DNA of 64,000 nucleotides, taken from NCBI GenBank assembly GCA_903877885.1, contig CAIRFN010000011.1, positions 9,281 to 73,280 on the forward strand, given 5' to 3'. Under the pieces are notes generated by a model. It did no database searches and had not been told where the DNA came from. It was given only the letters and a program-made list of their open reading frames with translations. This document shows positions 3,796-58,508 of the stretch, piece after piece (positions within the stretch are counted from its first letter, which is position 1; each line of letters begins with the position of its first letter). This DNA comes from an uncultured Candidatus Berkelbacteria bacterium. Its GTDB lineage: Bacteria > Patescibacteriota > UBA1384 > UBA12157. The position numbers and the translations under genes were made by a program.

Positions 3796-3859
3796 ATATT
3801 TTGTGCTTTTCCTAAGTTTTATGTTAGTTTAAAGACAGGGCAACAACTTTCAATGGGCG

Positions 3860-4072
3860 CTAACTCCCGTTGATCAAGTCATTAAGCGATTTTAGCTGTT
3901 TAGATTCCAATAAGGTATCTAAATGCATATCACTCCTGACTCCGAGGTCTATACCATATTCTGCCTCGACGGTAGAAATATGAGTATCGCCTCGTTTTTC
4001 GCGTAGCGGTCCGGTCTCATTACGAGAGCGGATGCCACGCATTCCAGGTGCGTCCTTCATCGGATTGCTCAT
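3860..4072 (-). CDS. Hypothetical small protein
   Basis: 70-aa ORF, first gene of the minus-strand phage-like operon. It sits just downstream of the DnaA-box/iteron intergenic region. Confidence 0.35.
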   Translation of the reverse strand: MSNPMKDAPGMRGIRSRNETGPLREKRGDTHISTVEAEYGIDLGVRSDMHLDTLLESKQLKSLNDLINGS

Positions 4073-4219
4073 AGCATTACTCCTTCTTAATTTAGAAGGC
4101 TCGACATCCTTCTGACCGTTTTACGGCCCTGCCGTATAGCCGTTATTTAGCCATTCAGAATTGAAAGAAGCGCCCTGTCTTATAATATTAAATGTAAAGT
4201 TTGATTTACTTAGTGTCAA

Positions 4220-4248
4220 TGTGGAAACAGTGGATAACCTGTGGATAA
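4220..4248 (-). promoter_or_regulatory. DnaA-box cluster (three tandem boxes)
   Basis: TGTGGAAAC (imperfect), AGTGGATAA and TGTGGATAA at 4220-4248. These are reverse complements of TTATCCACA-type DnaA boxes; the last is a perfect consensus. Confidence 0.5.
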
Positions 4249-4275
4249 GTTCGCTTTGTGTTCGGTTTATACCTA

Positions 4276-4378
4276 AAAATGAGACACAAGTCCTAAAACG
4301 GCCGTAGACTGTCTCATTTGTCTCATTTTCAGGTCAGAAATAGAAAAAATGAGACACAGACCGTCAAAACTGTCTCAA
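4276..4378. repeat. Iteron-like repeats built from a TGAGACA / TGTCTCA inverted-repeat unit
   Basis: AAAATGAGACACAAG...ACTGTCTCATTTGTCTCATTTT and AAAAAATGAGACACAGACCGTCAAAACTGTCTCAAAT. Two direct copies of an inverted-repeat unit plus a tandem TGTCTCATT duplication, in the divergent intergenic region. Confidence 0.45.
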
Positions 4379-11866: not shown

Positions 11867-13037
11867 AGAAGCCAAACAATCTCGCGAACGCCAAGCCGTG
11901 GATAGCGCCAAACGCGCTGTTGAAAAAGCGGCTAAAAGCAAAAAACCAAAAAAGAAAATCCGAGAAAACGAAGTTAAATTTCCTGAACCGATTAAATTGC
12001 TTTTAGAAAAAGGCCATTCTCAAGGTTTTGTCACTTATCAAGAAATTACTCAAGCTATGCCTGAACCGGAACGAAATCTCGGTTTAGCCGATGCTTTATT
12101 TGATGAATTTTTAAATTTAGGAATTGATGTGCGCCAAGGTCGCAAACTTTTGGAAATTCCGGGCGAAGAAGAAGTCGAAAAATCCAAAGCCGGTGAGCTC
12201 AAAGATATTTCCGATGATTCGGTTCGAATGTATTTGCGTGAAATTGGTCAAATTCCTTTACTTAGCACTGAAGAGGAAATTCGCTTAGCTAAAAGAATTG
12301 AAGCCGGGGATGAAAATGCCAAACGAAAATTAGCTGAAGCAAACTTACGACTAGTCGTTTCCATTGCCAAAAAATATATCGGTCGGGGATTATCTTTACT
12401 AGATTTGATTCAAGAAGGTAACACCGGACTTTTGCGTGCTGTCGAAAAATTCGATTTCCACAAAGGTTTTAAATTTTCGACTTATGCTACTTGGTGGATT
12501 CGCCAGGCGATTACCCGGGCGATTGCCGATCAGGCTCGCACCATTCGTATTCCGGTTCATATGGTAGAAACGATTAATAAATTAATTCGGGTGCAACGTC
12601 AATTAGTTCAAGATTTGGGCCGCGAACCGCTTCCTGAAGAAATTGCCGCTGAAATGCAAATGCCAGTCGATAAGGTTGAACATATTATTAAAATTTCTCA
12701 AGAAACAGTTTCTTTGGAAGCGCCGGTTGGTGAAGAAGAAGATTCGAAATTGGGCGATTTCATTGAAGACAAAGTTTCGCTTTCGCCGGAAGAAAATGCC
12801 ATTTATCAATTAATGAAAGGTCATGTTGGTGAATCGTTGATTAATTTGGCGCCACGCGAACAGAAAATCTTGAAAATGCGTTTTGGTTTGGAAGAAGGCG
12901 GCCGGACTCACACTTTGGAAGAAGTCGGTAAAGAGTTTGGTGTCACTCGCGAACGTATTCGTCAGATCGAGGCCAAAGCTCTTCAGAAAATGAAGAAAAA
13001 CGAATCCAGCCAAAAATTAAAAGATTATTTAAAGTAA
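11850..13037 (+). CDS. rpoD: RNA polymerase sigma-70 factor
   Basis: Regions 2-4 conserved ([60 protein letters not shown] ... [24 protein letters not shown]). RBS AAGGAG. Start overlaps the dnaG stop. Confidence 0.92.
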
Positions 13038-13045
13038 ATCTCAAA

Positions 13046-13143
13046 TTGTCATTCCAGATCGGACGGATTCCGGATCTGGAATCCAGGATATAATTTAAAC
13101 TGGATTCCCGATGTCGGATTACCATCCGACTCGAGAATGACAA
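13046..13143. repeat. MITE-like palindromic element, copy A (perfect 9-bp terminal inverted repeats TTGTCATTC / GAATGACAA)
   Basis: Starts 9 nt after the rpoD stop. Internal hairpins CCAGATCG..CGGATCTGG and GTCGGAT-tacc-ATCCGAC. Shares its ends and the internal CTGGATYCCCGATGTCGG block with copies at 63113-63242 and, inverted, 58355-58420. Confidence 0.55.
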
Positions 13144-13228
13144 ATTAGATGCGATGCTTTAAAACGCACACACCGGCTAAAGCCGGTGGTATTTTATTTT
13201 AATAAAAAACCGATGCGAGGCATCGGAA

Positions 13229-15838: not shown

Positions 15839-15958
15839 TGACAATTAGTTGCAAAGCTCCCTCTAGCCGATATATTCAGAACGAAATACTATGATATTAT
15901 TGTTAATTTAGGCAAAGAAATTGAACTATTAAAATTAGATCCTTGCTTCGACTTTTAG

Positions 15959-16144
15959 CTAATTAGTCTCCTGACGTCGCTTTTGGACCATTTCATAATC
16001 TTCTTTGGTCATTGGTTTGTAGATTAGTTCTACAAGCCGAAGCAGTTTTGTGGCCAACTCTAAAGCGTCTTGATCGTTTAGATCTTTTCCGAACTCTTTT
16101 TTGTAAATCGCCTTAAATTTGTCTAGCGATTCTTTTGAAATCAT
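15959..16144 (-). CDS. Hypothetical small protein (divergent from the island operon)
   Basis: 61-aa ORF, predicted all-helical. A 57-bp divergent AT-rich spacer separates it from the 16202 gene. Confidence 0.35.
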   Translation of the reverse strand: MISKESLDKFKAIYKKEFGKDLNDQDALELATKLLRLVELIYKPMTKEDYEMVQKRRQETN

Positions 16145-16201
16145 AAAAATCCTTGTGTAATTACTATTTTACTGATTATATTATAAGAAAGAGTAAATAA
16201 A

Positions 16202-17479
16202 TTGAAAGATGTAATGAATAAACCTCGGAAAATAACAGATGATGAAATTCAATTTCGCAAAAATGATCTTGAACGGAAGTTTAATTATGCTTATAAACAA
16301 ATGGACGAAAAAAGCTTTTTTATTGGTGTTTCTGATTATACGAATGCAATAGAAAAATCAGGCCTATTAAGATATTTAGTCCACATATCCTTGATTGATA
16401 ATCAATTTAAGATAACGAAGCCAATAGATGATTTATCAATTAAGACGGTCGAAGAAACTATGGACACGTTCAACCAACTTATAAAGATTATGAAGGACAA
16501 CAGGATCGATGAAGCGGATTTTCAATATGAAATCGATCAATACCGCGGATATTCAGAAAATAAAATACAAATGTTAAGTGGATTTGGTAATCAAGCAACT
16601 TCTACAGCCGAAACCGTAGCCAGCCTTTGCTGGTCATTACATCAAAAGGGCTATACTGATCTAGTCAAAAAATTTGCGGAATATAGCCGTGACAAGACAA
16701 TGATTGTTGATTTTTCAGTATCTGAATCTAACAAAACTTTGAGTAAAATGATTAAAAGATTAGAGGAATACCAAATATTCGCCTTATGGAGCGATTGGAA
16801 TAAGTTGACGCTAGTTTATGTTTCAATTTACCTAAGCGATGACTTCTCGGTTTCATATAGAGAAAAAAATGAACAAGCTAATCTGCATAACTTTATAGGA
16901 CTTGTCCAGGAAATGAAAGAAATATTAGGAATCAAAAAGCTAGCGCCCTGGTTATCCCAGTATAGATTTTTTAAAATGGAAGAATTTAAACGGTATTTGG
17001 ACCGAATCCATAATCATATCTTATCTGAAATAGATCGTTTTAGTTTGACCAAAAGAATAGAAAAAAAATCAGATAGCTTGATAAAAACCATTGTTATACC
17101 GAAAGAGAACCCTGACTTTTGTTATTTTGATGGCAGAACCTTCAAGCTACAAACATCTGATGGCGGTATAAAAGCAATAAATTTTTCGCCAACTAAAACA
17201 AAGGGTTCTGATACATATTATCTATTCTCGGCGCTGGTCAATATATTAAAGCAAAAAGGTGAAAGAAAAGATAATATTTGGTTTTTTGCAGATATAACAA
17301 TGGAAGAAATAACAAAACGGGTTGCCGAAGAATTTAATGAGAATAAAGACAGAGATTGGGTCAAAAATACCAAATCTAATCTCAAAAAAGTTATTCCTGA
17401 TGATTTGTTGTCTAATTATATTCAAATTTCTAACTACCAATCGAAAGGTTATAGTTTTGGACTAAAGTTGCCAAAATAG
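16202..17479 (+). CDS. Hypothetical protein (island cargo)
   Basis: 425-aa ORF, first gene of the co-directional cassette. No motif recognised. Confidence 0.5.
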   Translation: MKDVMNKPRKITDDEIQFRKNDLERKFNYAYKQMDEKSFFIGVSDYTNAIEKSGLLRYLVHISLIDNQFKITKPIDDLSIKTVEETMDTFNQLIKIMKDNRIDEADFQYEIDQYRGYSENKIQMLSGFGNQATSTAETVASLCWSLHQKGYTDLVKKFAEYSRDKTMIVDFSVSESNKTLSKMIKRLEEYQIFALWSDWNKLTLVYVSIYLSDDFSVSYREKNEQANLHNFIGLVQEMKEILGIKKLAPWLSQYRFFKMEEFKRYLDRIHNHILSEIDRFSLTKRIEKKSDSLIKTIVIPKENPDFCYFDGRTFKLQTSDGGIKAINFSPTKTKGSDTYYLFSALVNILKQKGERKDNIWFFADITMEEITKRVAEEFNENKDRDWVKNTKSNLKKVIPDDLLSNYIQISNYQSKGYSFGLKLPK

Positions 17480-17632
17480 TTTAATTACACCAAAAATACA
17501 CCAGGCGTAGCTTAGGCGTAAAAGAAACTTGTATTTTACAGGTTTCTTTTTTTGTTGCAGGACTATTGACATTGTTTCGGTGTAAAGCCCTGATTTAACT
17601 TGATTTATGCGTAATGCCTAATTAGGTAACAA

Positions 17633-17854
17633 ATGAATAAAGTAAAAGAACCACAACTAAACCCTTACGAAAGGCTTTATGGTAGAAAGCTTTCCGAAGA
17701 TAAGGTGGCCGAGATGAAAACTAATCTCATCGGATTTTTTAGTTTGCTAATCGAAATAGATAGAGAAAATCACATTGTTAACCAAGAAGAAAATAATTTA
17801 ACAAAAGGAGTAAACAATGACCCACAAAAAGAAACTGGACCAGTCCAGTACTAA
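17633..17854 (+). CDS. Hypothetical small protein
   Basis: 73-aa ORF. It overlaps the next gene, which is a pattern of tight coupling in this cassette. Confidence 0.3.
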   Translation: MNKVKEPQLNPYERLYGRKLSEDKVAEMKTNLIGFFSLLIEIDRENHIVNQEENNLTKGVNNDPQKETGPVQY

Positions 17855-18578
17855 ACCACCTATTACGCCAGAAAACGCACAATTAGCCATACAAACACCT
17901 GTCAATCCAGCCACTCCCCCTCTTAGTAATGAAGCAAATAAACTTAGCCCACAGGATTTAAAAATCATAAATGATGTTAAAACTACGGGCGAACATCAAA
18001 TACCGAGAATAAATAATAATGATATTCAACAAATAAATGATATGGGGGTTCATCAGGTTAAAGATAACAGTCCTATTGTATATGATAAAGGTTCTTTGAC
18101 CCATTTTGCCGAAACTGTTGGTAGCCCAGAAAAATCAGTGCATTTAAGTCCGGCTGAAACTGAACTTGTAGTCAGTAATCCAGATGATGTTTTGCCTAAT
18201 TTTTTTAAAGGTGGATCGAACTCATATTTATATGTTAAAAAAACTCCACAAAACACATTGTCAATCGTGGAGGTTTTAGATGATGGGAGTAAATTGCGTG
18301 TCAGTCACGGCGGTTTTAAAACAACTGAGAACTATTTGAAACCGATGGAAGAATTAAAAAAATCTATCTTGGAGGACGGCGGATCCCTCATTGGTCAGCC
18401 TGGACAAAGTCCAGTGATTAACCCTCAAAAGGGTACTGCCGTGGTGAGCCTTGCCACTAGTCAAGATAGATTATCTAATCCAAGTATCCCACAAAAAGAA
18501 GGTCTTGTCAATCCTCCCCCTCTTAGTAATGAAGCAGGGGGGATAAGGCCAGGAGAGGTGGGAGGAGTTAAAAAATGA
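17817..18578 (+). CDS. Hypothetical protein with internal PPLSNEA repeats
   Basis: 253 aa. NPATPPLSNEANKLSP near the N-terminus and VNPPPLSNEAGGIRPG near the C-terminus. Confidence 0.45.
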   Translation: MTHKKKLDQSSTKPPITPENAQLAIQTPVNPATPPLSNEANKLSPQDLKIINDVKTTGEHQIPRINNNDIQQINDMGVHQVKDNSPIVYDKGSLTHFAETVGSPEKSVHLSPAETELVVSNPDDVLPNFFKGGSNSYLYVKKTPQNTLSIVEVLDDGSKLRVSHGGFKTTENYLKPMEELKKSILEDGGSLIGQPGQSPVINPQKGTAVVSLATSQDRLSNPSIPQKEGLVNPPPLSNEAGGIRPGEVGGVKK

Positions 18579-18892
18579 ACATAACCGAAGTTCAAATTAT
18601 ACCAATTAAACCGAGTGATGGTTTGGTCGGGTTCGCCAGTTTGGTTTTAGATGGCAAAATCTTTCTTGGCTCGATCGGGGTCCATTCAAGACTGGACGGC
18701 AACGGCTACAGAATCACCTACCCCACCAAAAAGGTCGGCGACAGGAACTTGAATATATACCATCCCATCGATCGGGATTTATCTTCAGCCATCGAAACGG
18801 CAATTTGTAACAAATTTAAAGAAGTAATGGAAAAAAGTAATGATCGACACAATAGCTTTAACCCTGAATCAGGACCAGTACAAGATTTTTGA
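18575..18892 (+). CDS. SpoVG-family protein
   Basis: ITEVQIIPIKPSDGLVGFASLVLDGKIFLGSIGVHSRLDGNGYRITYPTKK...IYHPIDRDLSSAIETAI aligns with B. subtilis SpoVG ([44 protein letters not shown]...DIAHPIN...KIQDAVL). Confidence 0.6.
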   Translation: MNITEVQIIPIKPSDGLVGFASLVLDGKIFLGSIGVHSRLDGNGYRITYPTKKVGDRNLNIYHPIDRDLSSAIETAICNKFKEVMEKSNDRHNSFNPESGPVQDF

Positions 18893-19949
18893 CCACAGTA
18901 GATTTAGATCAACTGATTATATAGGGAAAAATAGCTTTACTAAAAAAGTTTATAACCCTGATTTTAACAAAGAAGGATATAAGCCAAGAATCACTCTTTA
19001 TAATAGATTCGGGACCGAACAGATTCGAATTGAATTTTCGGCTCCTAAAATCCTCTTTGGCAATAATTTTGACGAACTGGATGAAAGCGATTTTGATAAT
19101 CTAGTGGCTAAACTCTATAACAATTTATGGGAAATGAAGATCAGAGCATATCCCGATGATTTAAAAAAAGCCAATGTTTCCAAAATAGATTATTCGAAAA
19201 ACTTTGTTTTGGGAAACGGCGTTAAAACTTGGCAAATTCTCAATGAACTCAGTAAAGTTGACCTTACCAGATCAAGTGATATTGAAGAGGTAAAATATCG
19301 TAATAAGGGGCATTGCTTGCATTTGAAGCATACCAACTCACTCGATTTTGCCGTTTACGACAAATGGGCCGATTTGGTTAAGGCTAAAATAAGCGACAAA
19401 CGATCAATTGAAAAAGATAATAAATTACAGCTTAATTTACTGGATTTAATTGAAGACACGAATAAATTGGAGATTATCAGAATTGAAGCAAGGCTCGTTG
19501 ACAGGCAGAAAATCAAAGACATTTTGAAATTATTCTCTTTTAATGATGATCTTACTTTTCAAGGATTATTCAAAAAACATATTGCCAGGGCGGTCCTCGG
19601 CAAGTACTGGCACGAAATAGCCGATGGCTTGGATATTGCAAACATAAGAGACTATGAAGAAATCGATTTGATAAGTTTAATATTGGAATCTGATAAGATG
19701 ACGGCGAACCAAGCCCTCAGGATAGCCTCTGTGATAAATATTTACCAAAAGGGTCAAGTTCTACAGTTAAAAAATCTATTGAGTTCTCACGGCTATGACA
19801 GGTCATTTAGCGAACTTGCAAAGCTTATTCGAACCTTAGATTTGCCAAAAAATTGTAAATATAAAGCCATATTGGGTATTGGCCAGTCTATCGAAGAGAT
19901 GAACAAAACAAGCCTAAAGAATCATCCAAAATTAAAATTTGCAATGTAA
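18840..19949 (+). CDS. Putative rolling-circle replication initiator (Rep_trans-like)
   Basis: N-terminal alternating hydrophobic motif MIDTIALTL, an IRIEFSAPK block and FAVYDKWADL. These resemble the Rep_trans family, whose hallmark is a conserved YDK. Assignment is tentative. Confidence 0.35.
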   Translation: MIDTIALTLNQDQYKIFDHSRFRSTDYIGKNSFTKKVYNPDFNKEGYKPRITLYNRFGTEQIRIEFSAPKILFGNNFDELDESDFDNLVAKLYNNLWEMKIRAYPDDLKKANVSKIDYSKNFVLGNGVKTWQILNELSKVDLTRSSDIEEVKYRNKGHCLHLKHTNSLDFAVYDKWADLVKAKISDKRSIEKDNKLQLNLLDLIEDTNKLEIIRIEARLVDRQKIKDILKLFSFNDDLTFQGLFKKHIARAVLGKYWHEIADGLDIANIRDYEEIDLISLILESDKMTANQALRIASVINIYQKGQVLQLKNLLSSHGYDRSFSELAKLIRTLDLPKNCKYKAILGIGQSIEEMNKTSLKNHPKLKFAM

Positions 19950-19983
19950 ACTAAAGTAAAGTATTATAATAACAGAGGTAATA

Positions 19984-21951
19984 ATGGAAAATAACGAAGA
20001 ATTTTACACATCACAGGAAATTGCCGATAAATTGAAGATCAATATAATGACCGTTTATAGACATATTAATTCTGGTAAATTGAAGGCTATAAAAACAGGT
20101 AAAGATTTCAGGGTTCTCAAGTCCGATTTTGAGGACTATTTACAGAGTAATCAGCAAAGAAATGTTCTTGAAGAAAAAGACAATAAAATTCTTTTTTTAG
20201 AAAAAACGATTGCAAAACTTAAAAATAACATCAAAAAAGAAAGATACGGGTTGAATTGGTTTGATGTCCCTGAGGCCTTCGAGGATGATGTCGAGCATAA
20301 ACTTCCAATATTAAAGGAAGACCAAAAAATGGCGATTGGAACTGAAGATGACCAACCAACTCATATACTTATCGAGGGTGATAATTACCACGCACTCACT
20401 TGCTTAAATTATACTCACAAGGAAAAGATTGATATTGTTTACATCGATCCACCGTATAATACTGGCTCGGATGGATTCAGATACAAGGACAAGAGGATAT
20501 TGGATAAATTTCCCGATGGAACTGATGTACCCGTTGATCATCCATTTAGACAATCTTACTGGCTGTCTTTTATGAAAAAAAGATTGGATTTGACATACGA
20601 TTTAATGAAAAAAGATGGTCTATTAGCTGTCTCTATCGATGACAACGAATATGCCCAATTAAAACTATTATTAGCAGAAAAATTCGGCGACTCAATCAAG
20701 ACAATTGTAGTGAAAATGAGCGAAGCCTCTGGTCTGAAGATGGCCTCTATTAAAAAATCTGGCGGTATACCCAAATATAAAGAGTACTTACTCCTAGCGA
20801 TGAAGGATGGAATTAGAAACCTATCATTCGACTTTATCCCTAAAGAAATTTGGGATAATGAGTATAATCTTATACTTGAAAATTTTTCCTATAACGACTA
20901 CCAGGAATATCTTAATATATTAGATAACAATAATCTCGCTCCTAAAACCGCAACCGAACATCTTGATGAAATTTTCCAAAATGTAAAGATTGGCTCTCTA
21001 GCGGCCACCTTAAAGTCATTAGAAATTCCAAAAAATGAATTATCTAAATGGCTTACAGATAATAGTTGGCGAATTTGCCGCAGCGCAGCTTCTAGTTCAG
21101 TTAAGAGACTCGCTGATGTCAAAAGGATGGATAGTAAACAACAGATTTTTTCTGTAAATTCTGTAAGAGATAATATCCTCTATCTTGTCAAAGGCGACTA
21201 TGACGATGATTCAGCAAGTCCTCGTGTACAATTACTCCTCGCAATCGATAATTTAAGTGTACATCCAGGCGACCTATGGACAGACATAAAAACTACTGGT
21301 CTTGAGGCAGAGGGTGGTGTAGAGTTTAAAAATGGTAAAAAACCATTAGCTCTGTTAAAAAGAATTATATCAAGCATTAACGATAAAAACGCCGTTATAC
21401 TAGATTTTTTTGCTGGTTCTGGGACAACTGGCGAAGCAGTAATGGAGCTGAATCATAAAGATAAAGGAAGAAGACAATTTATTCTAGTTACTAATAACGA
21501 GGGTGGCATTATGACTGAAGTATGCCATCCAAGAATGGTTAATTCTGTCAAAAAGTATAATGGCTCAATAAAATATTATAAGACTGCCTTTGTTGGGGAA
21601 AATAACATTTTAAATTCAACTGACCAGGATAAGCTAGAGTTAGCCTATAATGCTGGTGAGCTCTTGGCAATTGCAGAAAATACTCTTTACGAACAAAAGA
21701 AAAATGAATTTTACCAAATATTTAAAGATAATAATCGCTACACTGCAATATATTTTAGGGAAGAAATGGATAAATACGATGAATTTATTCAGGAAGTTAA
21801 AAAATTAAAAGCTGACGAAATATCCGTTTATATCTTTAGCTGGGAATCTGATGAAACAATATACGAATTTGAAGATATGAAAAATATTAGAATAAAAACA
21901 ATTCCTCAACCAATAGTAGAAATTTATAAGCAAATATATAATTTGGTATAA
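19984..21951 (+). CDS. mod: Type III restriction-modification methyltransferase (Mod) with N-terminal excisionase-type HTH
   Basis: N-terminal HTH (YTSQEIADKLKINIMTVYRHINSGKLKAIKTGKDFRVLKSDFEDYL). MTase motif IV (IDIVYIDPPYNTGSD) and motif I (ILDFFAGSGTTGEAV). It sits immediately upstream of a helicase-type restriction subunit. Confidence 0.8.
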   Translation: MENNEEFYTSQEIADKLKINIMTVYRHINSGKLKAIKTGKDFRVLKSDFEDYLQSNQQRNVLEEKDNKILFLEKTIAKLKNNIKKERYGLNWFDVPEAFEDDVEHKLPILKEDQKMAIGTEDDQPTHILIEGDNYHALTCLNYTHKEKIDIVYIDPPYNTGSDGFRYKDKRILDKFPDGTDVPVDHPFRQSYWLSFMKKRLDLTYDLMKKDGLLAVSIDDNEYAQLKLLLAEKFGDSIKTIVVKMSEASGLKMASIKKSGGIPKYKEYLLLAMKDGIRNLSFDFIPKEIWDNEYNLILENFSYNDYQEYLNILDNNNLAPKTATEHLDEIFQNVKIGSLAATLKSLEIPKNELSKWLTDNSWRICRSAASSSVKRLADVKRMDSKQQIFSVNSVRDNILYLVKGDYDDDSASPRVQLLLAIDNLSVHPGDLWTDIKTTGLEAEGGVEFKNGKKPLALLKRIISSINDKNAVILDFFAGSGTTGEAVMELNHKDKGRRQFILVTNNEGGIMTEVCHPRMVNSVKKYNGSIKYYKTAFVGENNILNSTDQDKLELAYNAGELLAIAENTLYEQKKNEFYQIFKDNNRYTAIYFREEMDKYDEFIQEVKKLKADEISVYIFSWESDETIYEFEDMKNIRIKTIPQPIVEIYKQIYNLV

Positions 21952-21953
21952 AA

Positions 21954-24332
21954 ATGAAGCAATTTAACCCATTAGAATTTCAAAAAGAGACCATAGATAA
22001 ATTATCGAAAGTTTTTGTTGAGACTTGGAAAAAAGGTGGCAAAAAACTCCCCATTGTTTTGAAAGCCCCTACTGGTAGCGGTAAAACTTTTATGGTTGCT
22101 AATTTTATCAGAGGTTTAAATCATTTACCCCAATGGCAAGAAGATAAAGCGTTTATCTGGATTACTTTTAGCGATGATCTTGCTATGCAAAGTAAAGACA
22201 AATTTGCCGAATACTTTGAGAACAATTTAGAGAACAATTTAGTTACTGTCGATGATATAAACAGAAGAAAGCTATTTAACAATGATATTATCTTTCTAAA
22301 TTGGCAAAAAATAGTTTCAAAAAGTGCCGAGACTCGGGTATTAAGGAGACCAGAAGATGAAATAATGCGAAAAGAAAGAGGGGCTTATTGGGAAGACTTT
22401 ATTGACGGAACTCAAAACGATAATCGTGAAATAATTCTCATTATTGACGAAGCTCATAAGAATAAAGGTACAATTCTTGCAAAAGAGATTATTGACTATA
22501 TAGATCCAAAAATCATTTTACATATTACTGCTACACCAGATAAAGAAGATGAACTTGAAGCCTACAGAATGGGTTCAATGGTTGAGGTTAATCGTCCGCA
22601 GGTAGTAGAACAAGGTCTTATCAAAGAAAAAATCGTGGTTCAGACAGAAGAAGATTTATTGAGCCACAAAGGGCAAGATCTTGATAAAGTATTACTTGAT
22701 TTAGGTGTTAAGCGGAGAGAAGAATTAAAGAAAGAATTTAAAGAACTTGGCAAAGATGTAAACCCTTTAATGTTGATCCAGCTACCAAACGATGACAACA
22801 AATTGATTGAAATGGCCAAAGAAACAAAAGAATCGGTTGTAAGTGATTACCTAAAAGAAATTGGAATACCTGATAAAAAAATTGCCAAATGGTTTGATGG
22901 TAGACAAGAGAATATGGAGTTAATAACTGAAAACGATAGTGACACCGACTATATGCTCTTTAAGCAGGCGGCTGGAACTGGTTGGGACTGTCCTCGTGCT
23001 TCCGTTCTCGTAATGTTCAGAGAGATTAAATCTGATAAATTTTACACTCAAACAGTTGGCAGAATACTCAGAATGCCAGAACCAGAGCTTAAAGAAGACT
23101 ACAAAAATAATGAAAATTTAAGAATTGGCTATCTTTACACGAACTATAAGAGGAATCAAGTTGAATTGCCTGATCAATCAGGCAATAATAAGCCATATAT
23201 TCATTTCTCATATCCGAAAGAAGGTGTTAAGAACATAGAGCTACAATCCGAATATATTTCAAGAGTTGATTATGGGGATATTCCAAAATCCTTTAAATTT
23301 CAGCAAAGCTTTATCAAATCAATAAACAAATATTTTGATATAACGGATAACGATATACTTGGGAAAGCCCAAAAAAAATTAGAAAACCAAAAAATAGATC
23401 TTGACGGTAATCTAACCAATAAGATTATCGTTAATGCCGAGTTTAAAGATTTCGATCAATTGAACTACGAATTTAACAAAGAAGGTAGCGATCTTGAAAT
23501 GGAAATGTCTACTAATGACGTTGAAAAAACGTTTAATTATATTTGCTATCAATTACTACAAGAACAGGAAAATAATGAAGCAAAATACACCAATATCGCA
23601 AGGTCTTGGAGTACTCTAAAATCCGCTATAAGAATTTGGTTAAAGAAAACCATTAACGAAGATAGTGATTATTTCTATCGGGTATTCGTTAAAGATATTA
23701 ATAAAGGGGCTTCTAGCAAGTTTAGACCAGCAATAACGAAAGCTTTGATTGATTTTAAGCCGATAGCAAAACAAATAATTGATGAAAAAAAGATTTTGCA
23801 CGAGCAAAAAGAAGCTCCTTTGTTTAAAATCCAAGATGAATATTCATTTACTGAAGACTATACGGATGAAGATCAGAAGCTATGTGTTCTGGATAAGTTT
23901 TATATCTTAATAGATGATTACAAGGGCAAAAAAAATGAGCTTGATTTCAAAAATTATATAGATAGTCTGGATAATTCTATTACTTGGTGGTTTAAAAATG
24001 GTGATTATGGGAAAATATATTACGCCTTAAAATATATGGACTCCGTTGATCAGAAAGAGGCTCTTTTCTATCCAGATTGGATAATCTATTTCAAGGATGG
24101 CAGAATCGGTATATTTGATACAAAAGATGACGAGACTGCTAAATCTCAAGAAACTAAAGATAAGGCCGTTGCGCTTTCTGAAAAAATAAAAGCTCTTGGC
24201 AACAAATATGTTGGTGGTATCATAGTGAAGAGTTCTGGGGTTTGGTATTTTAATGATTCGGTTAATTATGAGTTTGTAAAAGGAAAAATTGAACAAGATA
24301 AAAATTGGAAAAAATTTGAAGGAATATTATGA
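21954..24332 (+). CDS. res: Type III restriction enzyme, Res subunit (SF2 helicase-nuclease)
   Basis: Helicase motif I LKAPTGSGKTFMVANF and motif II IIDEAHK (DEAH box), 792 aa. Start is 3 nt after the mod stop. Confidence 0.8.
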   Translation: MKQFNPLEFQKETIDKLSKVFVETWKKGGKKLPIVLKAPTGSGKTFMVANFIRGLNHLPQWQEDKAFIWITFSDDLAMQSKDKFAEYFENNLENNLVTVDDINRRKLFNNDIIFLNWQKIVSKSAETRVLRRPEDEIMRKERGAYWEDFIDGTQNDNREIILIIDEAHKNKGTILAKEIIDYIDPKIILHITATPDKEDELEAYRMGSMVEVNRPQVVEQGLIKEKIVVQTEEDLLSHKGQDLDKVLLDLGVKRREELKKEFKELGKDVNPLMLIQLPNDDNKLIEMAKETKESVVSDYLKEIGIPDKKIAKWFDGRQENMELITENDSDTDYMLFKQAAGTGWDCPRASVLVMFREIKSDKFYTQTVGRILRMPEPELKEDYKNNENLRIGYLYTNYKRNQVELPDQSGNNKPYIHFSYPKEGVKNIELQSEYISRVDYGDIPKSFKFQQSFIKSINKYFDITDNDILGKAQKKLENQKIDLDGNLTNKIIVNAEFKDFDQLNYEFNKEGSDLEMEMSTNDVEKTFNYICYQLLQEQENNEAKYTNIARSWSTLKSAIRIWLKKTINEDSDYFYRVFVKDINKGASSKFRPAITKALIDFKPIAKQIIDEKKILHEQKEAPLFKIQDEYSFTEDYTDEDQKLCVLDKFYILIDDYKGKKNELDFKNYIDSLDNSITWWFKNGDYGKIYYALKYMDSVDQKEALFYPDWIIYFKDGRIGIFDTKDDETAKSQETKDKAVALSEKIKALGNKYVGGIIVKSSGVWYFNDSVNYEFVKGKIEQDKNWKKFEGIL

Positions 24333-25831
24333 AAGCGGTAATTCTTGCCAGGGTTTCGACCAAAGAGCAAGAAGATCAGGGTCATTCTTTACCCGCTCAG
24401 ATAAGAAAGCTTGAAGAATATGCGGAAAAGCATAATTTTGAGGTAGTTGAAACGTTCTCTTTCTCGGAAAGTGCTGGCAGTAAAATCAGAAAAAAGTTTG
24501 AAGAGGTTCTTAAGTACTTGAAGCAAAATAAAAGCGTCAAGGTTCTTTTATGCGAGAATGTGGACCGATTAACTAGAAACTTTAAAGACGCTGTCGATAT
24601 AGACGAAATGCGTAAAAATAACGGTCTAGAGGTCCATTTTGTTCAAGATGGCTTCTTTTTAAATGCCAAAGCCACAGGCAATCAAATGTTTATGTGGGAA
24701 GCAAAGGTCTTTATTGCCAAACAATACTTGAACAGATTATCTGATGATGTGAATAGGTCTATAGATCAAAAGCTTAGAAATGGCGAATGGCCGACGAAAG
24801 CCCCAATCGGCTACCTGAACGAAACATTAGAAGACGGCAAAAAAGATATATTGCCCGATAGTACTAGAAGGCGTTATATCAAAAAGGCTTTTGAATTATT
24901 CGCTACTGGCAGTTATAGCGTGCCGAAAATCGCTCAAATTCTTGAAGCCGATGGTTTAAGAAATAATAACCCTCAAAAATCGGTTGTGCCTTATAGCCAG
25001 ATGGATATAATCCTGAAGAATCCATTTTATTACGGCGAAATGATTTATAAAGATCAGATCTGGCCCCACCATTACGAACCAATAATCGAGAAATGGCTAT
25101 TTGAAAAATGCAATTCGGTCCGAAATGGTCGGTCCAATACTCTAATTAAATACGCCAGCAAGCCTTTTGTTTTTCGAGGGCTGATCAGATGTGGCGAATG
25201 TGGCTGTATGATCGGTAAAGACCCGAAGAAAGGTTTTAATTATTGTGTTTGTAATCAATTTAAGGGTAAGCATAAAACAGAAATAGTACTTGAAGAAGAC
25301 CTTATTGAGCAAGTTAAAGACGTTTTTCGTAAAATCAGAGTACCTATGGACGTACTTCAGGATCTAAAATTATCATTGGAAAATAACCTTAAGGCCGAGC
25401 AAGAATTTTATGAAACTTCAATTGATCAGTTCAGGAAAGAATACGACGAAAACAAACGAATATTAAAGAAATCTTACCTCGACAATGCCAGAGGGCGTAT
25501 TACAGACGACCAATATGATGAAATCTTCGAAGAAATATCAGCCAGACAAAGCTTCTTAGACAACCAAATGCAAAGGCATACAGAGGGCAACAAAGCGTTT
25601 CTTATGGCCTGTACATACCTTATCAAGCTAACAAACAAAGCACTAGAAATATTTGAAAGTTCGAAACCAGAACAAAAAAGACAACTCATCACCTTCATAC
25701 TTTCGAACTTGAAATTAGAAGGCAAAAAGCTGTCTTTTACTCTGAACGAGCCCTTCGACGCCATCGTCGAATACTCTCAATCAGTAACAAAGCTCCCCGG
25801 GCCCGATTCGAACGGGCGACCGTCTCCTTAA
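24329..25831 (+). CDS. Large serine recombinase (resolvase/invertase N-domain plus recombinase and zinc-ribbon domains)
   Basis: N-terminus MKAVILARVSTKEQEDQGHSLPAQ carries the catalytic Ser context. C-terminal Cys cluster (CGECGCMIG...CVCNQF). 500 aa. The last 13 codons or so are antisense to tRNA-Asn. Confidence 0.85.
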   Translation: MKAVILARVSTKEQEDQGHSLPAQIRKLEEYAEKHNFEVVETFSFSESAGSKIRKKFEEVLKYLKQNKSVKVLLCENVDRLTRNFKDAVDIDEMRKNNGLEVHFVQDGFFLNAKATGNQMFMWEAKVFIAKQYLNRLSDDVNRSIDQKLRNGEWPTKAPIGYLNETLEDGKKDILPDSTRRRYIKKAFELFATGSYSVPKIAQILEADGLRNNNPQKSVVPYSQMDIILKNPFYYGEMIYKDQIWPHHYEPIIEKWLFEKCNSVRNGRSNTLIKYASKPFVFRGLIRCGECGCMIGKDPKKGFNYCVCNQFKGKHKTEIVLEEDLIEQVKDVFRKIRVPMDVLQDLKLSLENNLKAEQEFYETSIDQFRKEYDENKRILKKSYLDNARGRITDDQYDEIFEEISARQSFLDNQMQRHTEGNKAFLMACTYLIKLTNKALEIFESSKPEQKRQLITFILSNLKLEGKKLSFTLNEPFDAIVEYSQSVTKLPGPDSNGRPSP

Positions 25832-25864
25832 CAGGGAGTCGCTCTACCGCTGAGCTACCGGGGA
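25793..25864 (-). tRNA. tRNA-Asn (anticodon GTT)
   Basis: Manual fold of the reverse complement: acceptor TCCCCGG/CCGGGGA, D-arm GCTC-AGCGGTA-GAGC, anticodon arm ACTCC-CTGTTAA-GGAGA, variable CGGTC, T-arm GCCCG-TTCGAAT-CGGGC, discriminator G. CCA is not encoded. Confidence 0.85.
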
Positions 25865-50900: not shown

Positions 50901-53900
50901 TGCTAATGTTGAAAATTCGAGCGTTACAAAGATGAACGGTTCGACCGGTGTGGTGATTGGAACTTACGCGGCTGGTAGTCAACCTTACGGCATTTCAGCC
51001 GACCTAACTGGTCATATCTGGGTTGCAAATTATGTCTCAAGTTTGAAAGAAATAGACAGCTCAAATGGTAGTATTCTTCACGATTATCCAATTCAGTCCT
51101 ATGCAATGGGTTTGTCGCTAGATGCTTCTGGCAATATTTGGGTCGGTGACCAGAACTATGGTGGCGGTACTGGTGTCCAAAAAGTAAGAGCTTCTGACGG
51201 TACGGTTTTAGGAACTTATAGTGCAAGTTACAACTATCGAACATCAGTCTTAGGTGATGCGACTGGCTTTAAATACTTGAATTTTGTCTTGGGTGATGGC
51301 ACGATGCCCAAATACACGCTTGGTGCCGGAACTTTGAATGTGAATAATCTGACAATTGGCGACACTACCACACCATCGTTTGTGACTGCCGCCACTCACA
51401 ACCCAACTATCAATATTTCTGGCGATTTAGATCTTAAAGCCAATGGAACACTAACTGCATCAGGAACTCATACTTTGAGTTTGGCTGGCAACTGGACTAA
51501 TGCCGGTACTTTCAATGCTAACGGTGGCACAGTCAATTTAACAGATAATTCAACTATTTCCGGTAGTTCGACTTTCAATAATCTTTCAGCCACGACTGGC
51601 GGTAAAACCATTTCCTTTGCGGCTGGTTCAACTCAAACTGTTTTAGGAACTTGGACGGCGACTGGCAATAGCGATTCCAATATTACTCTAGCTCGATCTG
51701 GTTCCAGCGGTATTTGGTCAATTAATCCAACCGCCTGGAATGTGGACTATGCCACAGTTTCCAATTCAACAAATCTAGCTTCCAGCCCAATCAATCCACC
51801 GCATTGGACTAATTCCGGTAATAACACTAACTGGTTAACTCCGGCGGCAACGGGCGCTAGTATTACCAACCTAACCTCGACTGGTTTTGATGTGACCTGG
51901 ACCGATAATTCTTCTAGTGAAGATGGTTATAAAGTTTATATTGCCGCCGGCGCATCTGATTGCTCGACCGCGTCATATTCCGGCACTGCCGACTATACTG
52001 TCGCCGCCAATACTACCACTAAATCTGTGACTGGCAAATCCGTCAACAGCCAATATTGCGCCAAAGTGACGACTTATAATGGTTCATATGAATCCACGCC
52101 GGTTTATACTAATTCCGCTTATACTTTAGCTAATGTGCCGAGTGCGCCAACTGCGGCCGCCCAATCATCGACTTCGGTTAAAGTTACGATTAATCAAAAT
52201 TCCAATCCGTCAAATACGACTTACGCGGTTAAAGTAGTTTATGGTGCAACCACGAAATATCTTCACACTGACGGGACATTAAGCGATTCGATTACTTGGG
52301 AAACTTACGCTAACTTTGGTGGCGCCAATGGCATTACCAATACTGGATTAACTACCAATACTCAATATACTTATTCAGTCGCGGCCAAAAACGGCGATGG
52401 TACAGCGACCGATTATTCTTCGACTGCTAATGCCACAACTTCGTCGACTTACGCGATTTCGGCATCTGTCTCTGGTGGTCATGGAACTGTTAGTCCAACT
52501 TCTGCCAATAAAGAAGCCGGCGCCAGCCAAGATATTACTATTACACCAGATTCTGGTTATTATATTGCCAGTATTGCTGACAACGGTTCAAGTCTGACCG
52601 GTACTTTGAGCTCGCCATATTCTTTGACTAATATTTCCGCCGCTCACACCATTGTCGTGACTTTTGTCGCCAACGGTACTTGTATTTGGGACGGCGGCGG
52701 TTCAGATAATAACTGGACAACGGCCAATAACTGGACCGGTAATGCCGCGCCAGATGCTAATTGCGATGTTATTTTCAATGCGACTTCAACCAAGGATTCG
52801 ACGATTAATACCACAACTCACTTCAAGTCAGTTTCCTTTAATTCCGGATATAGCGGTACAATAACTGATAGTTCAACTTTCAATGTTGATGGTAACTTGA
52901 ATTTGGCTAGCGGTACATTTAACGCTGGGAGCCAAGCTATTAATATTGGTGGTAACTGGAACAATACCGGCGCTACTTTTAATCCAGGTAGTTCGACTGT
53001 AACTTTCACTTCGACCAGCTCTGGTAACACCATTAAATCTTCCAATCAACATTTCAATAATTTTGTTCTTTGGGGCAATGGCGGCGACTGGACCGCTCAA
53101 GACAATATCAGTGTCGATGGTAACTGGTCAAGATTTGACGGTACCTTTATTCCAAGTGACTACACGGTTAATTTAACCGGCGCGACTGGATCGACTCAAA
53201 TTTTAACCAACGATACTACTTTCAATAATCTGACGGCCACAGCGACTGGCGCTCGCACGATTCAATTTGCTGGTGGCTATACTCAAATCGTTTTGGGGAC
53301 TTGGACGGTGACTGGCTCGGATAGTGGCAATATTACTTTGGAATTAAAATCCGGCGATGGCGATTACTGGCGAATCACTCCAACTGCTTGGAATGTTAAT
53401 TATGTGACTGTTTCTAACTCGATTAACAATGCTTCCAGTCCAATTAATCCGGCGGTTTGGACTAATGGTGGTGGCAACACCAACTGGGCAATTGGTCAGC
53501 CAACCGGTGTGACTTTAGCTACACCAACCACCACTGGTTTTACTGCTAACTGGTCCGAATCAATTCAAAACGGTAACGGTTACAAAGTTTATGTTTCGAC
53601 AACTGCTAACTCTGATTGTTCGGCGGCAACTTATCCAGGCACAGCTAGCTATACGATCAATTCAGCTTCAACTTTAACAAAAGACGTGACTGGCAAATCA
53701 GTCAATACTCAATATTGTGTCGCAGTCAAAGAAACCAGCGCGACAGGGGATTCAGCTTTGGCTTACTCGAATCCACTTTATACTTTGGCTAACACGCCGG
53801 GTCAGCCAACTGTGAATGTGCTTGGTTCAAATTCGATTAATGTTAAAATTGATCAGAATTCCAATTCGGCTAATACGACTTACGCTATTAAAGTGGTGAA

Positions 53901-56900
53901 CGGTTCGACGACTAAATATTTGCAAACCGATGGTACGCTTAGTAATTCGGCCGAGTGGGCCAGTTATGCTGATTTTGGTGGCGCTGATGGTTTAACCAAT
54001 ACTGGTTTGACAATCAATAATTTATACACTTATTCCATCGCGGCCAAAAATGGCGATGGGGAAGCGACTGATTATAGCACGACTGCCGATGGTTCAACTC
54101 TATCAACTCACACTATTACGGCTTCGGTTTCCGGTGGTCATGGTACAATCTCGCCAGCTGGTGTTACCGCTTTGGATAATGACGCTAACCAAGATTACAC
54201 CATTACACCGGCCGATGGTTACTATATTGCTCAAATTATTGTTGATGGCATCTCGATTTCCGGCACTTTGAGCTCACCATATTCATTTACCAATGTCGAA
54301 GGCGATCACACAATTGTCGCCACCTTTGCCGCTAACGGCACTTGTGTTTGGGACGGCGGCGCGGCAGGGGATGCTCGTTGGTCATCGGCTGATAACTGGA
54401 CTGGAAACGTCGCTCCAAGCACTAGTTGTGATGCAATTTTCAATGCCACTTCGACCAAAAATTCTTCGTTAGATTCCAGTTTTGAACCGGGTCATGTTAA
54501 TTCCTTATCGATTAACACTGGCTATACTGGTACTTTGACTTTGGATGATGTCCTAAACGATGATACTAATTTGACTATTGCTTCCGGTACAATTGATGCT
54601 ACCAATCAAGTAATTAATCTTGGCGGCAACTGGACGAAAACTGGCGGTACTTTCACTGCTGGTGGTGGCACAATTAATTTAATCGCTGGTGAGGGTACAA
54701 CTCAAATTATTTCCGGCTCAACTACTTTCCGTAATTTGACCGCAACTACTTCAGTCGCCAGAACAATTAGTTTTGCGGCTGGTTCAACTCAAACGGTCAC
54801 TGGTAATTTGACTTTAACCGGCACAACCGATGTGGCTTTGACTTTGGCTCGAAATGGTTCAAGTGGTGTTTGGTCAATCAATCCAACCGCCTGGGATATT
54901 GATTACGTGACGGTTAGTAACTCCACTAACCTGGCTTCCGCCCAAATTAATCCGCCACATTGGACTAACGTTAGCAATAACACTAATTGGGAAACGAGTT
55001 ATTCTGCGCCAACTGTCACGACTAATAATCCTGTCACCTCTGATCAAACTAAGACCACCGCAACTATCAGTGGTAATATCACAGCAACAGGTAATAAATC
55101 GATGACCGCTTGCGGTTTAGAGTATGGTACTGATGAAGCAAATCCGACGAATGCGGCACCGTCTACCGATTGTAATGCAACCACACCAACATCAATTATT
55201 GCCAATTTAACTAATTTAACTGCCGATACCACTTACTATGTTCGCGCTTATGCTGCCAACTCTATCGGCACTAATTACGGCGAATGGGTAAGTTTTGCAA
55301 CTTTACCAAATACTTACACAATCACTGCTTCTGCTGGCGCTCATGGCACAATCAGTCCATCCGGCGAAGTTTCAGCAAACAATGCTTCAAACAAAACATT
55401 TATCATTACTCCAGCTACAAATTATCATATCAGTAGTATTTTGTTTGACGATGAATCGCAAACGATTACCACCGCGACTGGCATGGACTTTGCAGTCAAT
55501 AATATTACGACTAATCACACTTTATCGGTCAGTTTTGCCATTAACACCAACACGGTTACGGCTTCGGCTGGCGCTAACGGTACAATTTCGCCACTGGGCG
55601 CTACAGCTGTTAATTATGGCGCCACTCAAGCTTACACTATCACACCAAACACTAATTTTCATATTGCTTCGGTTTTGGTTGATGGTCAGTCGGTCGGTGT
55701 GGTCACATCTTACACCTTTACTAATGTGATAACTTCCCACACTATTTCCGCTACCTTTACGGTTGATACTCACAATATTGTTGCTTCAGCAGGTTCGCAT
55801 GGCGCTATTAGTCCAACCGGTACAACTGCGGTTAATTATGGCGGCGATCAAGCTTATACCATTTTGCCAAGCGATAATTATCATATTGCCGATGTCTTGG
55901 TTGACTCTGTTTCTGTTGGCGCGGTCAGTGATTACGCTTTCTCGAATGTCGTAACTTCCCATACCATCTCCGCGACTTTCGTTGCCAATCCAGGCTTTGA
56001 ACACACTATTACTGCTACCATTTCTGGTCATGGCACGATTAGTCCAGCCGGTTCGGTTTTGGTTAGTGACAGCAATAGTCAAGTCTTTACTATCAATCCA
56101 TCAACCGGTTATTCTATCGACAGTATTTTGGTTGATAATGTAGCGGTCACTCCGGCTACAACTTATACTTTCTCTAATGTGACAACTGATCACACGATTG
56201 CAGTTACAATTGCTACAACTACTTACACAATTACCGCTTCGGCTGGTACTGGCGGTTCGATTAGTCCATCTGGCGCCGTTGTTGTTGATTATGATTCTGA
56301 CAAAACCTTTACCATCACACCAAAAACCGGTTATCATATTGACAATGTTAAAGTTAATAATAAATCTCAAGGCGCTATTTCGACTTACACCTTTAGTTCG
56401 ATTACCGATGATCAGGAAATTGAAGCGACTTTCGCTCTTGATCCAACTTCGATTGTTAACCCAACCAATTTAACTGGTATCGCTGGCGATTCGCAAAATT
56501 CACTTTCCTGGACCAATCCAATTACAACTTACTTTGATCATGTTGATTTATATCGATCAACTACGGCCGGCACACTTGGTGACAAATTAGCTGGAAACCA
56601 AACTGGCACAACATATATAGATCGAAACTTAACCAACAATACGACTTATTACTACACTTTGAAGGCAATTGATACTTACAATAATGTTTCGACTGGCACC
56701 GAACAATTGGCTTTGATGCCAAGCAGTATTGCAGATATCATTGCACCAAACGCGCCAACCAATTTGCGCGCCACCAACATCAAATCGACGACTATTAGTT
56801 TGGTTTGGGATGCTTCGACTGACAATGTTGCGGTTGTTGGCTATAAACTCTTTAATGCCGACACCAATATTCAAATTGCCACCACCAGCCAAACTGATTA

Positions 56901-58350: not shown

Positions 58351-58354
58351 GAAT

Positions 58355-58420
58355 TTGTCATTCTCGACTTGAATGGGATTTAAGATCAAGAATCCAGTCA
58401 TATTTACTATTAGTCATTGC
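58355..58420. repeat. MITE-like palindromic element, copy C (inverted and degenerate), 5 nt after the giant-gene stop
   Basis: AATTTGTCATTCTCGA is identical over 16 nt to the reverse complement of the copy-A terminus. The internal GAATCCAGT block is shared. Confidence 0.45.
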
Positions 58421-58508
58421 GCCTTTAGATAAAGCGGCGTCAGCTGTGTCAATCTATGATTCGGAATACTGAATCTCCGCGATTGCGAAGTAATCTATCA
58501 TGTATCCT

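Follow-up and report, generated by a model that had tools for sequence, protein, structure and literature searches.

The window (the whole stretch of DNA analysed here, 64,000 nucleotides) has a G+C content of about 38% and encodes DnaG, a 395-aa RpoD, a DivIC/FtsB-like protein and a 9,471-aa ORF. Several of the RpoD homologues are recorded as 'Patescibacteria group bacterium', and one FtsB homologue (55% identical) as Candidatus Berkelbacteria. Contig L141 is 100% identical to positions 53815-64000 of the window and extends 6.2 kb further. Three short repeats, designated copies A, B and C, follow rpoD, the ftsB-like gene and the giant gene, respectively. Copies A and C are flanked by convergent genes (for C, the giant gene and a YkuD-domain gene), copy B by unidirectional genes. 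The repeats had been described in a first-pass annotation as a family of MITE-like palindromic elements sitting just behind stop codons. Reading of the sequence at each locus confirmed that all three are present, and that they begin 5-10 nt after a stop codon at three of three sites, which is a published property of the repeat class discussed below (PMC3733652). The positions of the repeats, their parts and the neighboring signals are summarized in Table 1.

Table 1. Positions in the window of the three repeats, their putative REP-type units and the adjacent stop codons and terminators
Feature	Position	Strand	Description
Stop codon of rpoD	13035-13037		TAA; 9 nt before the tag of copy A
Copy A	13047-13142		Inverted pair of two REP-type hairpin units, TGTC tags outward, CCAG tails inward
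Copy A, left REP unit	13047-13086	+	Sequence and ssDNA fold (-10.7 kcal/mol, z -3.4)
Copy A, spacer	13087-13099		13 nt, AT-rich, GATATAATTTAAA, between the two tails
Copy A, right REP unit	13100-13142	-	Minus-strand reading TGTCATTCTCGAGTCGGATGGTAATCCGACATCGGGAATCCAG
Intrinsic terminator of rpoD	13171-13199	+	Stem-loop 13171-13188 (CACCGGCTAAAGCCGGTG), then T-run; 28 nt past copy A
Stop codon of the giant gene	58348-58350		TAA; 5 nt before the tag of copy C
Copy C, single decayed REP unit	58356-58397	+	TGTCATTCTCGACTTGAATGGGATTTAAGATCAAGAATCCAG; sub-type of A-right and B-right; partner arm absent
Bidirectional terminator	58509-58543		A-run, GACCTG, 10-nt loop, CAGGTC, T-run; 118 nt past copy C
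Stop codon of the ftsB-like gene	63100-63102		TGA; 10 nt before the tag of copy B
Copy B	63113-63241		Inverted pair of hairpin units, layout as in copy A
Copy B, left REP unit, long-arm form	63113-63176	+	Sequence and ssDNA fold (z -3.6)
Copy B, spacer	63177-63189		13 nt, AT-rich, AATCAATTCATAT
Copy B, right REP unit	63190-63241	-	TGTCATCCTCGAGCCGG...CCGACATCGGGGATCCAG; sub-type of A-right and C
Terminator-like hairpin	63263-63285	+	Stem-loop 63263-63278 plus CTTTTTC; 21 nt past copy B

Copy A is a 98-nt near-palindrome, which folds better than shuffled sequences both as RNA (-47.6 kcal/mol, z -6.3) and as DNA (-26.8, z -5.9). Its left arm consists of a TGTC tag, a 10-bp closing stem (ATTCCAGATC/GATCTGGAAT) and a CCAG tail. 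In the ssDNA fold the closing stem, which encloses about 12 nt, is extended by a 3-bp inner helix capped by an apical loop of 5 nt, while tag and tail both stay unpaired. The right arm folds into a stem of 15 bp that has one bulge and is capped by a GGTA loop (ssDNA, -11.6 kcal/mol, z -4.15).

Copy B as a whole also folds better than shuffles (RNA z -3.8, DNA z -3.5). Within the closing stem of its left arm (ATTCCGGT/ACCGGAAT) lies an inner hairpin, CCTGTA-TCAAG-TACAGG, and then ACAGGCTCC; this inner module (CCTGTATCAAGTACAGG-ACAGGCTCC) is also found, with compensatory changes, in deltaproteobacterial and Nitrospirae loci (L006, L011). The fold of the right arm is weak (-8.3 kcal/mol, z -1.4). 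The blocks CTGGATYCCCGATGTCGG and CCGRCTCGAGRATGACAA are common to copies A and B. Copy B starts with CTGTCATTC and ends with GGATGACAA, so its termini are related to those of copy A and not identical to them.

Copy C is a single arm and not, as first annotated, an inverted and shorter copy of the whole element. Many of its positions have drifted to A or T, its fold is no better than that of shuffles (RNA z about 0, DNA z -0.9), and in the ssDNA fold only TGT of the tag is unpaired.

Behind the three copies lies one unit plan. Each of the five arms carries the TGTC tag, a stem foot of ATTC/GAAT (four arms) or ATCC/GGAT (B-right) and the CCAG tail, and in four arms (both of A, both of B) the ssDNA folds leave tag and tail without a pairing partner. 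Just inside the foot the stems read CAGA/TCTG, CGGT/ACCG and TCGA/TCGG. The units are 40-64 nt long, with closing stems of 8-15 bp around large loops or nested hairpins, and the spacers of A and B are identical in length. Within the window, similarity among the three copies is marginal (BLAST E 0.017-0.07). The 9-mer TTGTCATTC occurs three times, against 1.15 expected, and three occurrences are reached by 10 of 100 shuffles. A generic scan of the window for GTC plus hairpin plus C returned 23 matches, which is background (shuffle mean about 19); among them the CCAG tail was carried only by the four known foldable arms. No further copies were found in the 64 kb with an HMM built from the arms, and the window together with L141 (70 kb of the genome) holds five units at three loci. 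Because these in-window statistics are weak, the reality of the repeat family rests on the shared architecture and on relatives outside the window.

Relatives were sought in the contigs of one genome per species with the pattern TGTCATYC-N18-48-GRATCCAG-N6-24-CTGGATYC, that is, one tagged arm and the central CCAG...CTGG. At least 120 matching stretches were found in these species-representative genomes, against our own chance estimate of about 20 (equiprobable bases). Of the 120 matches listed, 95 contain a complete inverted pair, a second tagged arm not being demanded by the pattern. Judged by record titles, the matches listed cover roughly a dozen phyla, including Alpha-, Beta- and Gammaproteobacteria, several 'delta' lineages, Nitrospirota, Nitrospinota, Chloroflexota, Planctomycetota, Kiritimatiellia, Fibrobacter and Bacteroidota, as well as a Rickettsia endosymbiont; at least eight of the records are Patescibacteria (Saccharibacteria, Parcubacteria, Moraniibacteriota and unclassified). 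The matches listed comprise 294 distinct arms, 205 of which are paired at each of the four positions just inside ATTC/GAAT, and the paired arms use more than 10 different stem sequences. This covariation points to the hairpin itself as the conserved feature of the arms. Arm lengths in the matches listed are bimodal (28-29 nt and about 38-55 nt), which places the long arms of the window in a widespread long form. Elsewhere, units also occur singly (at many loci), in arrays, inside ORFs and around GIY-YIG genes. A crude test for a 3'-end preference among the matches listed (ORFs of at least 100 aa) gave 17 convergent, 40 unidirectional and 20 divergent cases and 25 'inside long ORF', a result weakened by the abundance of spurious ORFs in GC-rich DNA.

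With these relatives at hand, a chance likeness of three unrelated AT-rich intergenic palindromes, which the in-window statistics by themselves would allow, is effectively refuted: tag, stem foot and tail are common to five of five arms, both complete elements have the same 13-nt spacing, the tail singles out the foldable arms from the background of the generic scan, and the same architecture recurs at the outside loci. The claim of one family of small non-coding palindromic repeats is supported.

The order of features is the same at all three sites: stop codon, 5-10 nt, element, 21-118 nt, terminator. Copies A, B and C are directly followed by ATTAGATG, AAAAGGAA and TCATATTT, respectively, without an adjoining T-run, and none of them shows the GC-rich hairpin with an immediate T-run that defines an intrinsic terminator. 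A T-run had been annotated near copy C only; T-runs with stem-loops are also located past A and B (Table 1). The signal behind copy C, GACCTG...CAGGTC plus TTTTTT at 58516-58543, was read by eye from the sequence. It is common to the giant gene and the convergent YkuD-domain gene, and was missed by the terminator scanner because its loop exceeds 8 nt. The terminator-like hairpin behind copy B overlaps a consensus promoter-like site (63266-63294). Since the copies lie 5-10 nt past the stop codon and upstream of a separate terminator, they are probably co-transcribed inserts in 3' UTRs and not terminators. The suggestion that they double as terminators for want of a T-run is contradicted by these separate terminators. 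A side effect at the RNA level in the 3' UTR is plausible, and a role in RNA stability is possible.

A stronger version of this idea would make the repeats RNA elements first, 3'-UTR stem-loops selected for mRNA stability or for translation or transcription termination and repeated on account of function and not of mobility. The location of all three inside the probable transcript and the strong RNA folds of A and B agree with it. REPs of E. coli were reportedly found (Newbury, 1987) to shield the mRNA upstream of them against 3' exonucleases, and REPs lying no more than about 15 nt from a stop codon are said (Liang, Rudd and Deutscher, 2015) to lower expression via ribosome stalling. In a REP survey, many REPs have also been argued to act as RNA (PMC3733652). 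No Rfam family matched at A or B, however, at either gathering or permissive thresholds, and copy C does not fold. As the paired units lie on opposite strands, only one of them is 'sense' in the mRNA. Stem mismatches give no strand signal (18 G.T against 13 A.C) and show no excess of G.U-compatible over A.C mismatches. Lastly, an mRNA-end function would leave the arrays, the in-ORF units and the units around GIY-YIG genes unexplained, and the elements themselves are without adjoining T-runs. A primary role as RNA is therefore considered quite unlikely.

Mobility was approached by comparison of sites, which gives indirect evidence. Copy A is present in all contigs with an identical RpoD, and absent after rpoD in relatives with 89-90% identical RpoD. 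In the latter the 3' flanks and downstream genes differ, so that nothing aligns past the stop codon, and no clean empty site for copy A was recovered among them. For copy B, the nearest non-identical FtsB/DivIC homologues are at most 58% identical and too distant for an empty-site comparison. A metagenome scan with the A/B-specific block gave five matches, two of them with an element. One (L132, a 1.2-kb JGI contig) carries a near-identical copy A between different genes, with right arm, spacer and terminator 100% identical, which could reflect movement, recombination or mis-assembly; the other (L131) is an unrelated high-GC dimer of the same repeat family. The remaining three matches, in high-GC DNA, were set aside as apparently due to chance. 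Among 2.9 million viral contigs there were four pattern matches, two of which are real pairs, and with this near-absence phage carriage is not a feature of the repeats.

Bacterial MITEs are derived from insertion sequences and have transposon-type terminal inverted repeats and target duplications (TA for Correia elements). The MITE reading taken at first pass would make the copies deletion derivatives of an IS, moved in trans by a DDE transposase via their terminal inverted repeats. The small size, the palindromic ends (TGTCATTC/GAATGACA) and the intergenic spread in several copies are indeed reminiscent of the Correia MITEs of Neisseria. The other hallmarks were not seen: there is no target-site duplication at A (flanks CTCAAAT / AATTAGA), at B (TTTTTAC / AAAAGGA) or at the outside copies examined, the termini are not inverted repeats of the transposon type, and no IS with these ends was seen in the 70 kb. 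The sole transposase-like ORF of the window is an HTH fragment at 331-747. Moreover, the feet of the hairpins are conserved while the stems covary, and 'ends' conserved over roughly a dozen phyla, among the matches listed, are unexpected for a single IS family. Each half folds alone and also occurs alone, as in copy C and at many outside loci. 'MITE-like' is thus the wrong class because each half is a self-folding REP unit with unpaired TGTC, AT-first stem and unpaired CCAG, and an origin as classical MITEs is very improbable.

A reading as integron attC sites was also rejected. An attC site has the inverse core RYYYAAC and the core GTTRRRY at the ends of an imperfect palindrome, and these do not correspond to the ends of the copies; there is no integron integrase in the window. 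The sole recombinase of the window is a large serine recombinase (24329-25831), which is part of a separate tRNA-integrated island.

The unit plan corresponds to a known group, the CGTC-tagged REPs (Di Nocera, De Gregorio & Rocco 2013, BMC Genomics 14:522, PMC3733652). They have a CGTC or TGTC (also CCTC) tag, a stem of 8-9 bp that opens with an A-T and then a T-A pair, a loop of 4-5 nt and a CCA tail, in units of about 28 nt; other loop lengths are given for some families of Bradyrhizobium, K. olearia and M. prima. Most are inverted dimers, foldable either as one large structure or as separate hairpins, with spacers mostly of 20-100 bp. Their place is between unidirectional or convergent genes, at under 20 bp from an ORF 3' end, and they number tens to thousands of units per genome. 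They are reported from five phyla and with no dedicated transposase, and the text consulted makes no mention of Patescibacteria. The window arms agree with the definition in tag, AT-first stem and a tail that fits CCA (each five of five), in inverted pairing (A and B; C is a singleton) and in the position at ORF 3' ends. They deviate from it in their length of 40-64 nt, their stems of 8-15 bp around large loops or nested hairpins, in place of 8-9 bp and 4-5 nt, and their 13-nt spacers. The survey further distinguishes families CGTC-1 to CGTC-4, with CGTC-1 comprising Neisseria dRS3 and Rickettsia RPE-6, and CGTC-4 being RPE-4 (PMC3733652). The window copies are all intergenic, whereas Rickettsia palindromic elements frequently occur as in-frame insertions within genes. 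The scan pattern itself matched a locus of a Rickettsia endosymbiont (L068).

The dRS3 element of Neisseria (dRS3/NIME repeats) is ATTCCC-N8-GGGAAT (Bentley 2007, PMC1797815), and NTS is dRS3 extended to 28 nt, CGTCATTCCCGCGMAVGCGGGAATCYRG (Chenal 2025, PMC11893778). In single-stranded form the NTS hairpin is bound by SsnA, a small single-domain GIY-YIG protein, which makes its cut upstream of the hairpin; cutting depends critically on the three bases that precede the palindrome, and binding on the C that follows it (PMC11893778). According to the same study, ssn genes across bacteria are flanked by Ssn-related motifs (SRM), and SsnA lowers transformation of N. meningitidis by NTS-bearing DNA. 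The NTS flanks, CGTCATTCCC-N8-GGGAATCYRG, are matched by the window arms in the GTC before the palindrome, the ATTCC/GGAAT foot and the C-C-A-G after it, and the Ssn-critical GTC and C are kept in five of five arms. Relative to the canonical form (8-9 bp stem, 4-5 nt loop), the window arms have stems richer in AT and hairpins of greater length. No match to the published SRM expression, HGTCWYN(0-2)YYVSBRHN(0-5)WNVSBRGN(0-2)RNCYNB, was present in the window, even when the loop was set to 0-40 nt. In contrast to the NTS and SRM-Ssn systems there are no arrays in the window, and a role in transformation has been shown only for N. meningitidis.

The nuclease side of this comparison was followed in the 120 listed loci, whose ORFs of at least 50 aa were searched with an HMM iterated from a GIY-YIG seed. 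Genes for single-domain GIY-YIG proteins of 96-130 aa are located in four of the 120 matches listed: L041 (Saccharibacteria), L060, L071 (Methylomonas) and L085 (Thermodesulfobacteriota). In L041, L060 and L085 the called GIY-YIG ORF is directly adjoined or overlapped by CGTC/TGTC arms; L041 has one arm that stops 5 nt short of the likely start codon and an inverted pair starting 8 nt past the stop, and in L085 the gene lies within an array of units. The nearest arms in L071 are of the long form, the closest ending 73 nt from the called gene. In an all-against-all clustering of the matches listed, GIY-YIG was the only small family to recur besides large housekeeping families. The flanking supports the published Ssn association and shows that it also occurs in Patescibacteria and with long arms.

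In the host genome itself, the window contains no GIY-YIG or Y1 transposase gene (HMM search; Y1_Tnp among the 30 window ORFs scanned), and no Ssn-type, cd10448-type or Y1/RAYT gene was found in the window plus the next 6.2 kb (70 kb). L141 carries, 1.07 kb past copy B and between two tRNA genes, a gene for an 85-aa GIY-YIG protein only 31-38% identical to the REP-flanked proteins. It was tried as the cognate nuclease and is not regarded as such because it lacks their C-terminal WKLxLIExxNPxW segment and its orthologues are without arms: no TGTC arms occur within 3 kb of them in four other Patescibacteria contexts. For this organism, a partner of the Ssn type may be proposed only tentatively.

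Another proposed multiplier of inverted REP doublets is RAYT, an HUH/Y1 tyrosine transposase. GTAG is the tag cleaved by the RAYT of E. coli, where the REP/BIME elements belong to the GTAG-3 family and have gyrase, IHF, Pol I and the RAYT YafM as partners; like the window copies, these palindromes are extragenic and occur in 3' UTRs, ahead of terminators or between them, and they differ in sequence family. In canonical REPINs, a hairpin of about 100 nt is made up of two inverted, GTAG-tagged REPs and the short spacer between them, and the RAYT gene is REP-flanked (Bertels & Rainey 2011, PMC3116915). Copies A, B and C as strict REPINs would be moved by a single-copy RAYT with no part for a GIY-YIG nuclease. 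They do resemble REPINs as inverted, non-autonomous and intergenic doublets that decay to singletons, and in Neisseria a dRS3-based REPIN, with master sequence ATTCCCGCGCAGGCGGGAATC, has been assigned to the Group 2 RAYT NMAA_0235 (Bertels & Rainey, bioRxiv 10.1101/2021.07.10.451892). However, the tag here is TGTC and not GTAG, no Y1_Tnp match occurs among the window ORFs scanned or the genes called in L141, and no RAYT was seen in the 70 kb. No transposase family recurs beside the elements in the matches listed, whereas GIY-YIG does. In the CGTC survey, a tyrosine transposase gene flanked by CGTC units was found in no CGTC-positive species (PMC3733652). An assignment to strict REPINs is therefore regarded as unlikely.

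Copies A, B and C are very probably TGTC-tagged REP units of the CGTC/TGTC-tagged REP superfamily, of the kind of dRS3/NTS, RPE-4/6 and SRM. By homology with the characterized members, they would act at the DNA level, each unit folding to a hairpin when the DNA becomes single-stranded. A dedicated small single-domain nuclease of the Ssn type would bind the stem and the following C, and would cut near the GTC tag. Such an enzyme, or else a RAYT-type HUH transposase, probably also multiplied the units. Copies would persist in the few bases that separate stop codon from terminator, since an insertion at that place disrupts no coding sequence and no promoter. As a by-product, they would become part of the transcript as 3' UTR, and there a stable hairpin near the stop codon could influence how the mRNA decays or how translation terminates. 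Taken as a whole, this account of REP-unit identity, action on single-stranded DNA, an Ssn-type nuclease and persistence at 3' ends is considered likely.

What is new here is the host lineage, the unusually long hairpins and the short spacer; the repeat class itself is already known and widespread. The finding is largely ordinary and leaves current understanding unchanged. It extends the CGTC/TGTC-REP, dRS3/NTS and SRM class to a Patescibacteria genome and shows the class to contain hairpins much longer than the published search expressions allow for. The proper annotation label is REP-type repeat, and not MITE or terminator. It is a speculative and rather improbable idea that the long-arm units (40-64 nt, nested hairpins), the pair of which is predicted to fold as a four-way junction, form a distinct cross-phylum sub-class, missed by 28-nt definitions and by SRM, and serve as sites of a divergent GIY-YIG nuclease in Patescibacteria. 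Patescibacteria have been proposed to depend on DNA uptake, and such a sub-class, if real, would connect the Ssn/REP system with the acquisition of DNA by ultra-small epibionts, and would be a tractable case for what copies CGTC-type REPs. These REPs may be multiplied by a GIY-YIG Ssn nuclease, by a RAYT or by neither, and tiny genomes with few copies could be a clean test ground for their multiplication.

The segment at window positions 15862-25777 is an integrated element that varies between strains. These ~9.9 kb are missing from two outside contigs (L123 and L125) that are otherwise identical to the window. The segment is bordered by the direct repeat CAAAGCTCCC, and its insertion point is the 3' end of a tRNA gene. 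Besides a large serine recombinase, its cargo comprises an HTH and N6/N4 DNA methylase, a ResIII helicase, SpoVG and a replication protein with a weak, Phage_CRI-like match. The coordinates of this and other features are summarized in the table.

Features in and next to the window
Feature	Position	Strand	Remark
Large serine recombinase	24329-25831		carried by the ~9.9-kb segment
tRNA gene	25793-25864	-	insertion site of the ~9.9-kb segment
Single ORF, 9,471 aa	29935-58350		
tRNA gene	60537-60610		5' half duplicated as 34-nt repeat
Sigma-70-type promoter match, perfect	63266-63294		TTGACA, 17 nt, TATAAT, upstream TG
Single-domain GIY-YIG gene, 85 aa	L141 10493-10750 (~64307-64564 in window numbering)		past window end, same genome

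A perfect direct repeat of 34 nt was found at 60440-60473 and 60543-60576. The second copy makes up the 5' half of a tRNA gene, and the first is therefore a half-tRNA remnant, located 103 nt upstream, which may be a scar left by integration or excision.

A near-identical element A is present in L132 (JGI Ga0114951_10164193), which aligns to window 13019-13212. Identity between the two is 100% over the right arm of the element, the 28-nt spacer and the rpoD terminator, but the sequence on both sides differs: L132 has another convergent ORF and lacks rpoD. The L132 copy may represent a larger module, mobile or recombining, of which the terminator is a part, or it may be an assembly chimera. Copy C lies 5 nt downstream of the stop codon of the giant ORF, which contains many internal repeat families (units of 34-300 nt, spacings of ~1.5-2.8 kb). 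Downstream of copy B, the promoter match overlaps a terminator-like hairpin and is followed by a CAP-domain gene.

In the outside loci L001-L120, one long-arm variant of the REP units is conserved: ATTCC-xGC-[CCCG..loop..CGGG]-RTAAACTCC-xGC-GGAAT. Among the matches listed, it accounts for 17 distinct arms in 19 loci (e.g., L031, L076, L116 and L030) from several phyla, two Patescibacteria included. The 28-nt REP definitions in the literature consulted do not take in this variant. In two loci (L085 and L065) of the Thermodesulfobacteriota chromosome OZ245366.1, CGTC/TGTC REP pairs are repeated in tandem every ~113 nt and form long arrays. A 96-aa GIY-YIG gene is embedded in one array, and the layout resembles that of the Neisseria NIME arrays.

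In L127, a relative with 89% identical RpoD, an 83-aa GIY-YIG ORF in the region 3850-4300 has the string GGTAGAGCGACTCCC on both sides. This string looks like a tRNA D-arm plus anticodon stem; no tRNA was called by ARAGORN at these sites. The GIY-YIG gene just past the window end is flanked by two tRNA genes in L141, the contig that continues the window. Its orthologues in other Patescibacteria (L142, L144, L147 and L152) are preceded by a set of GC-stem hairpins, and a downstream tRNA (anticodon CAT) is kept in at least L144 and L152. No match for the hairpin set was found in Rfam. The stems covary, e.g., CCCCGTGAT...TTTTACGGGG, CCACGAGAT...TTTTTCGTGG and CCCCGCGAT...TTTTGCGGGG, and the set is possibly a structure that regulates in cis or serves as a cognate site.
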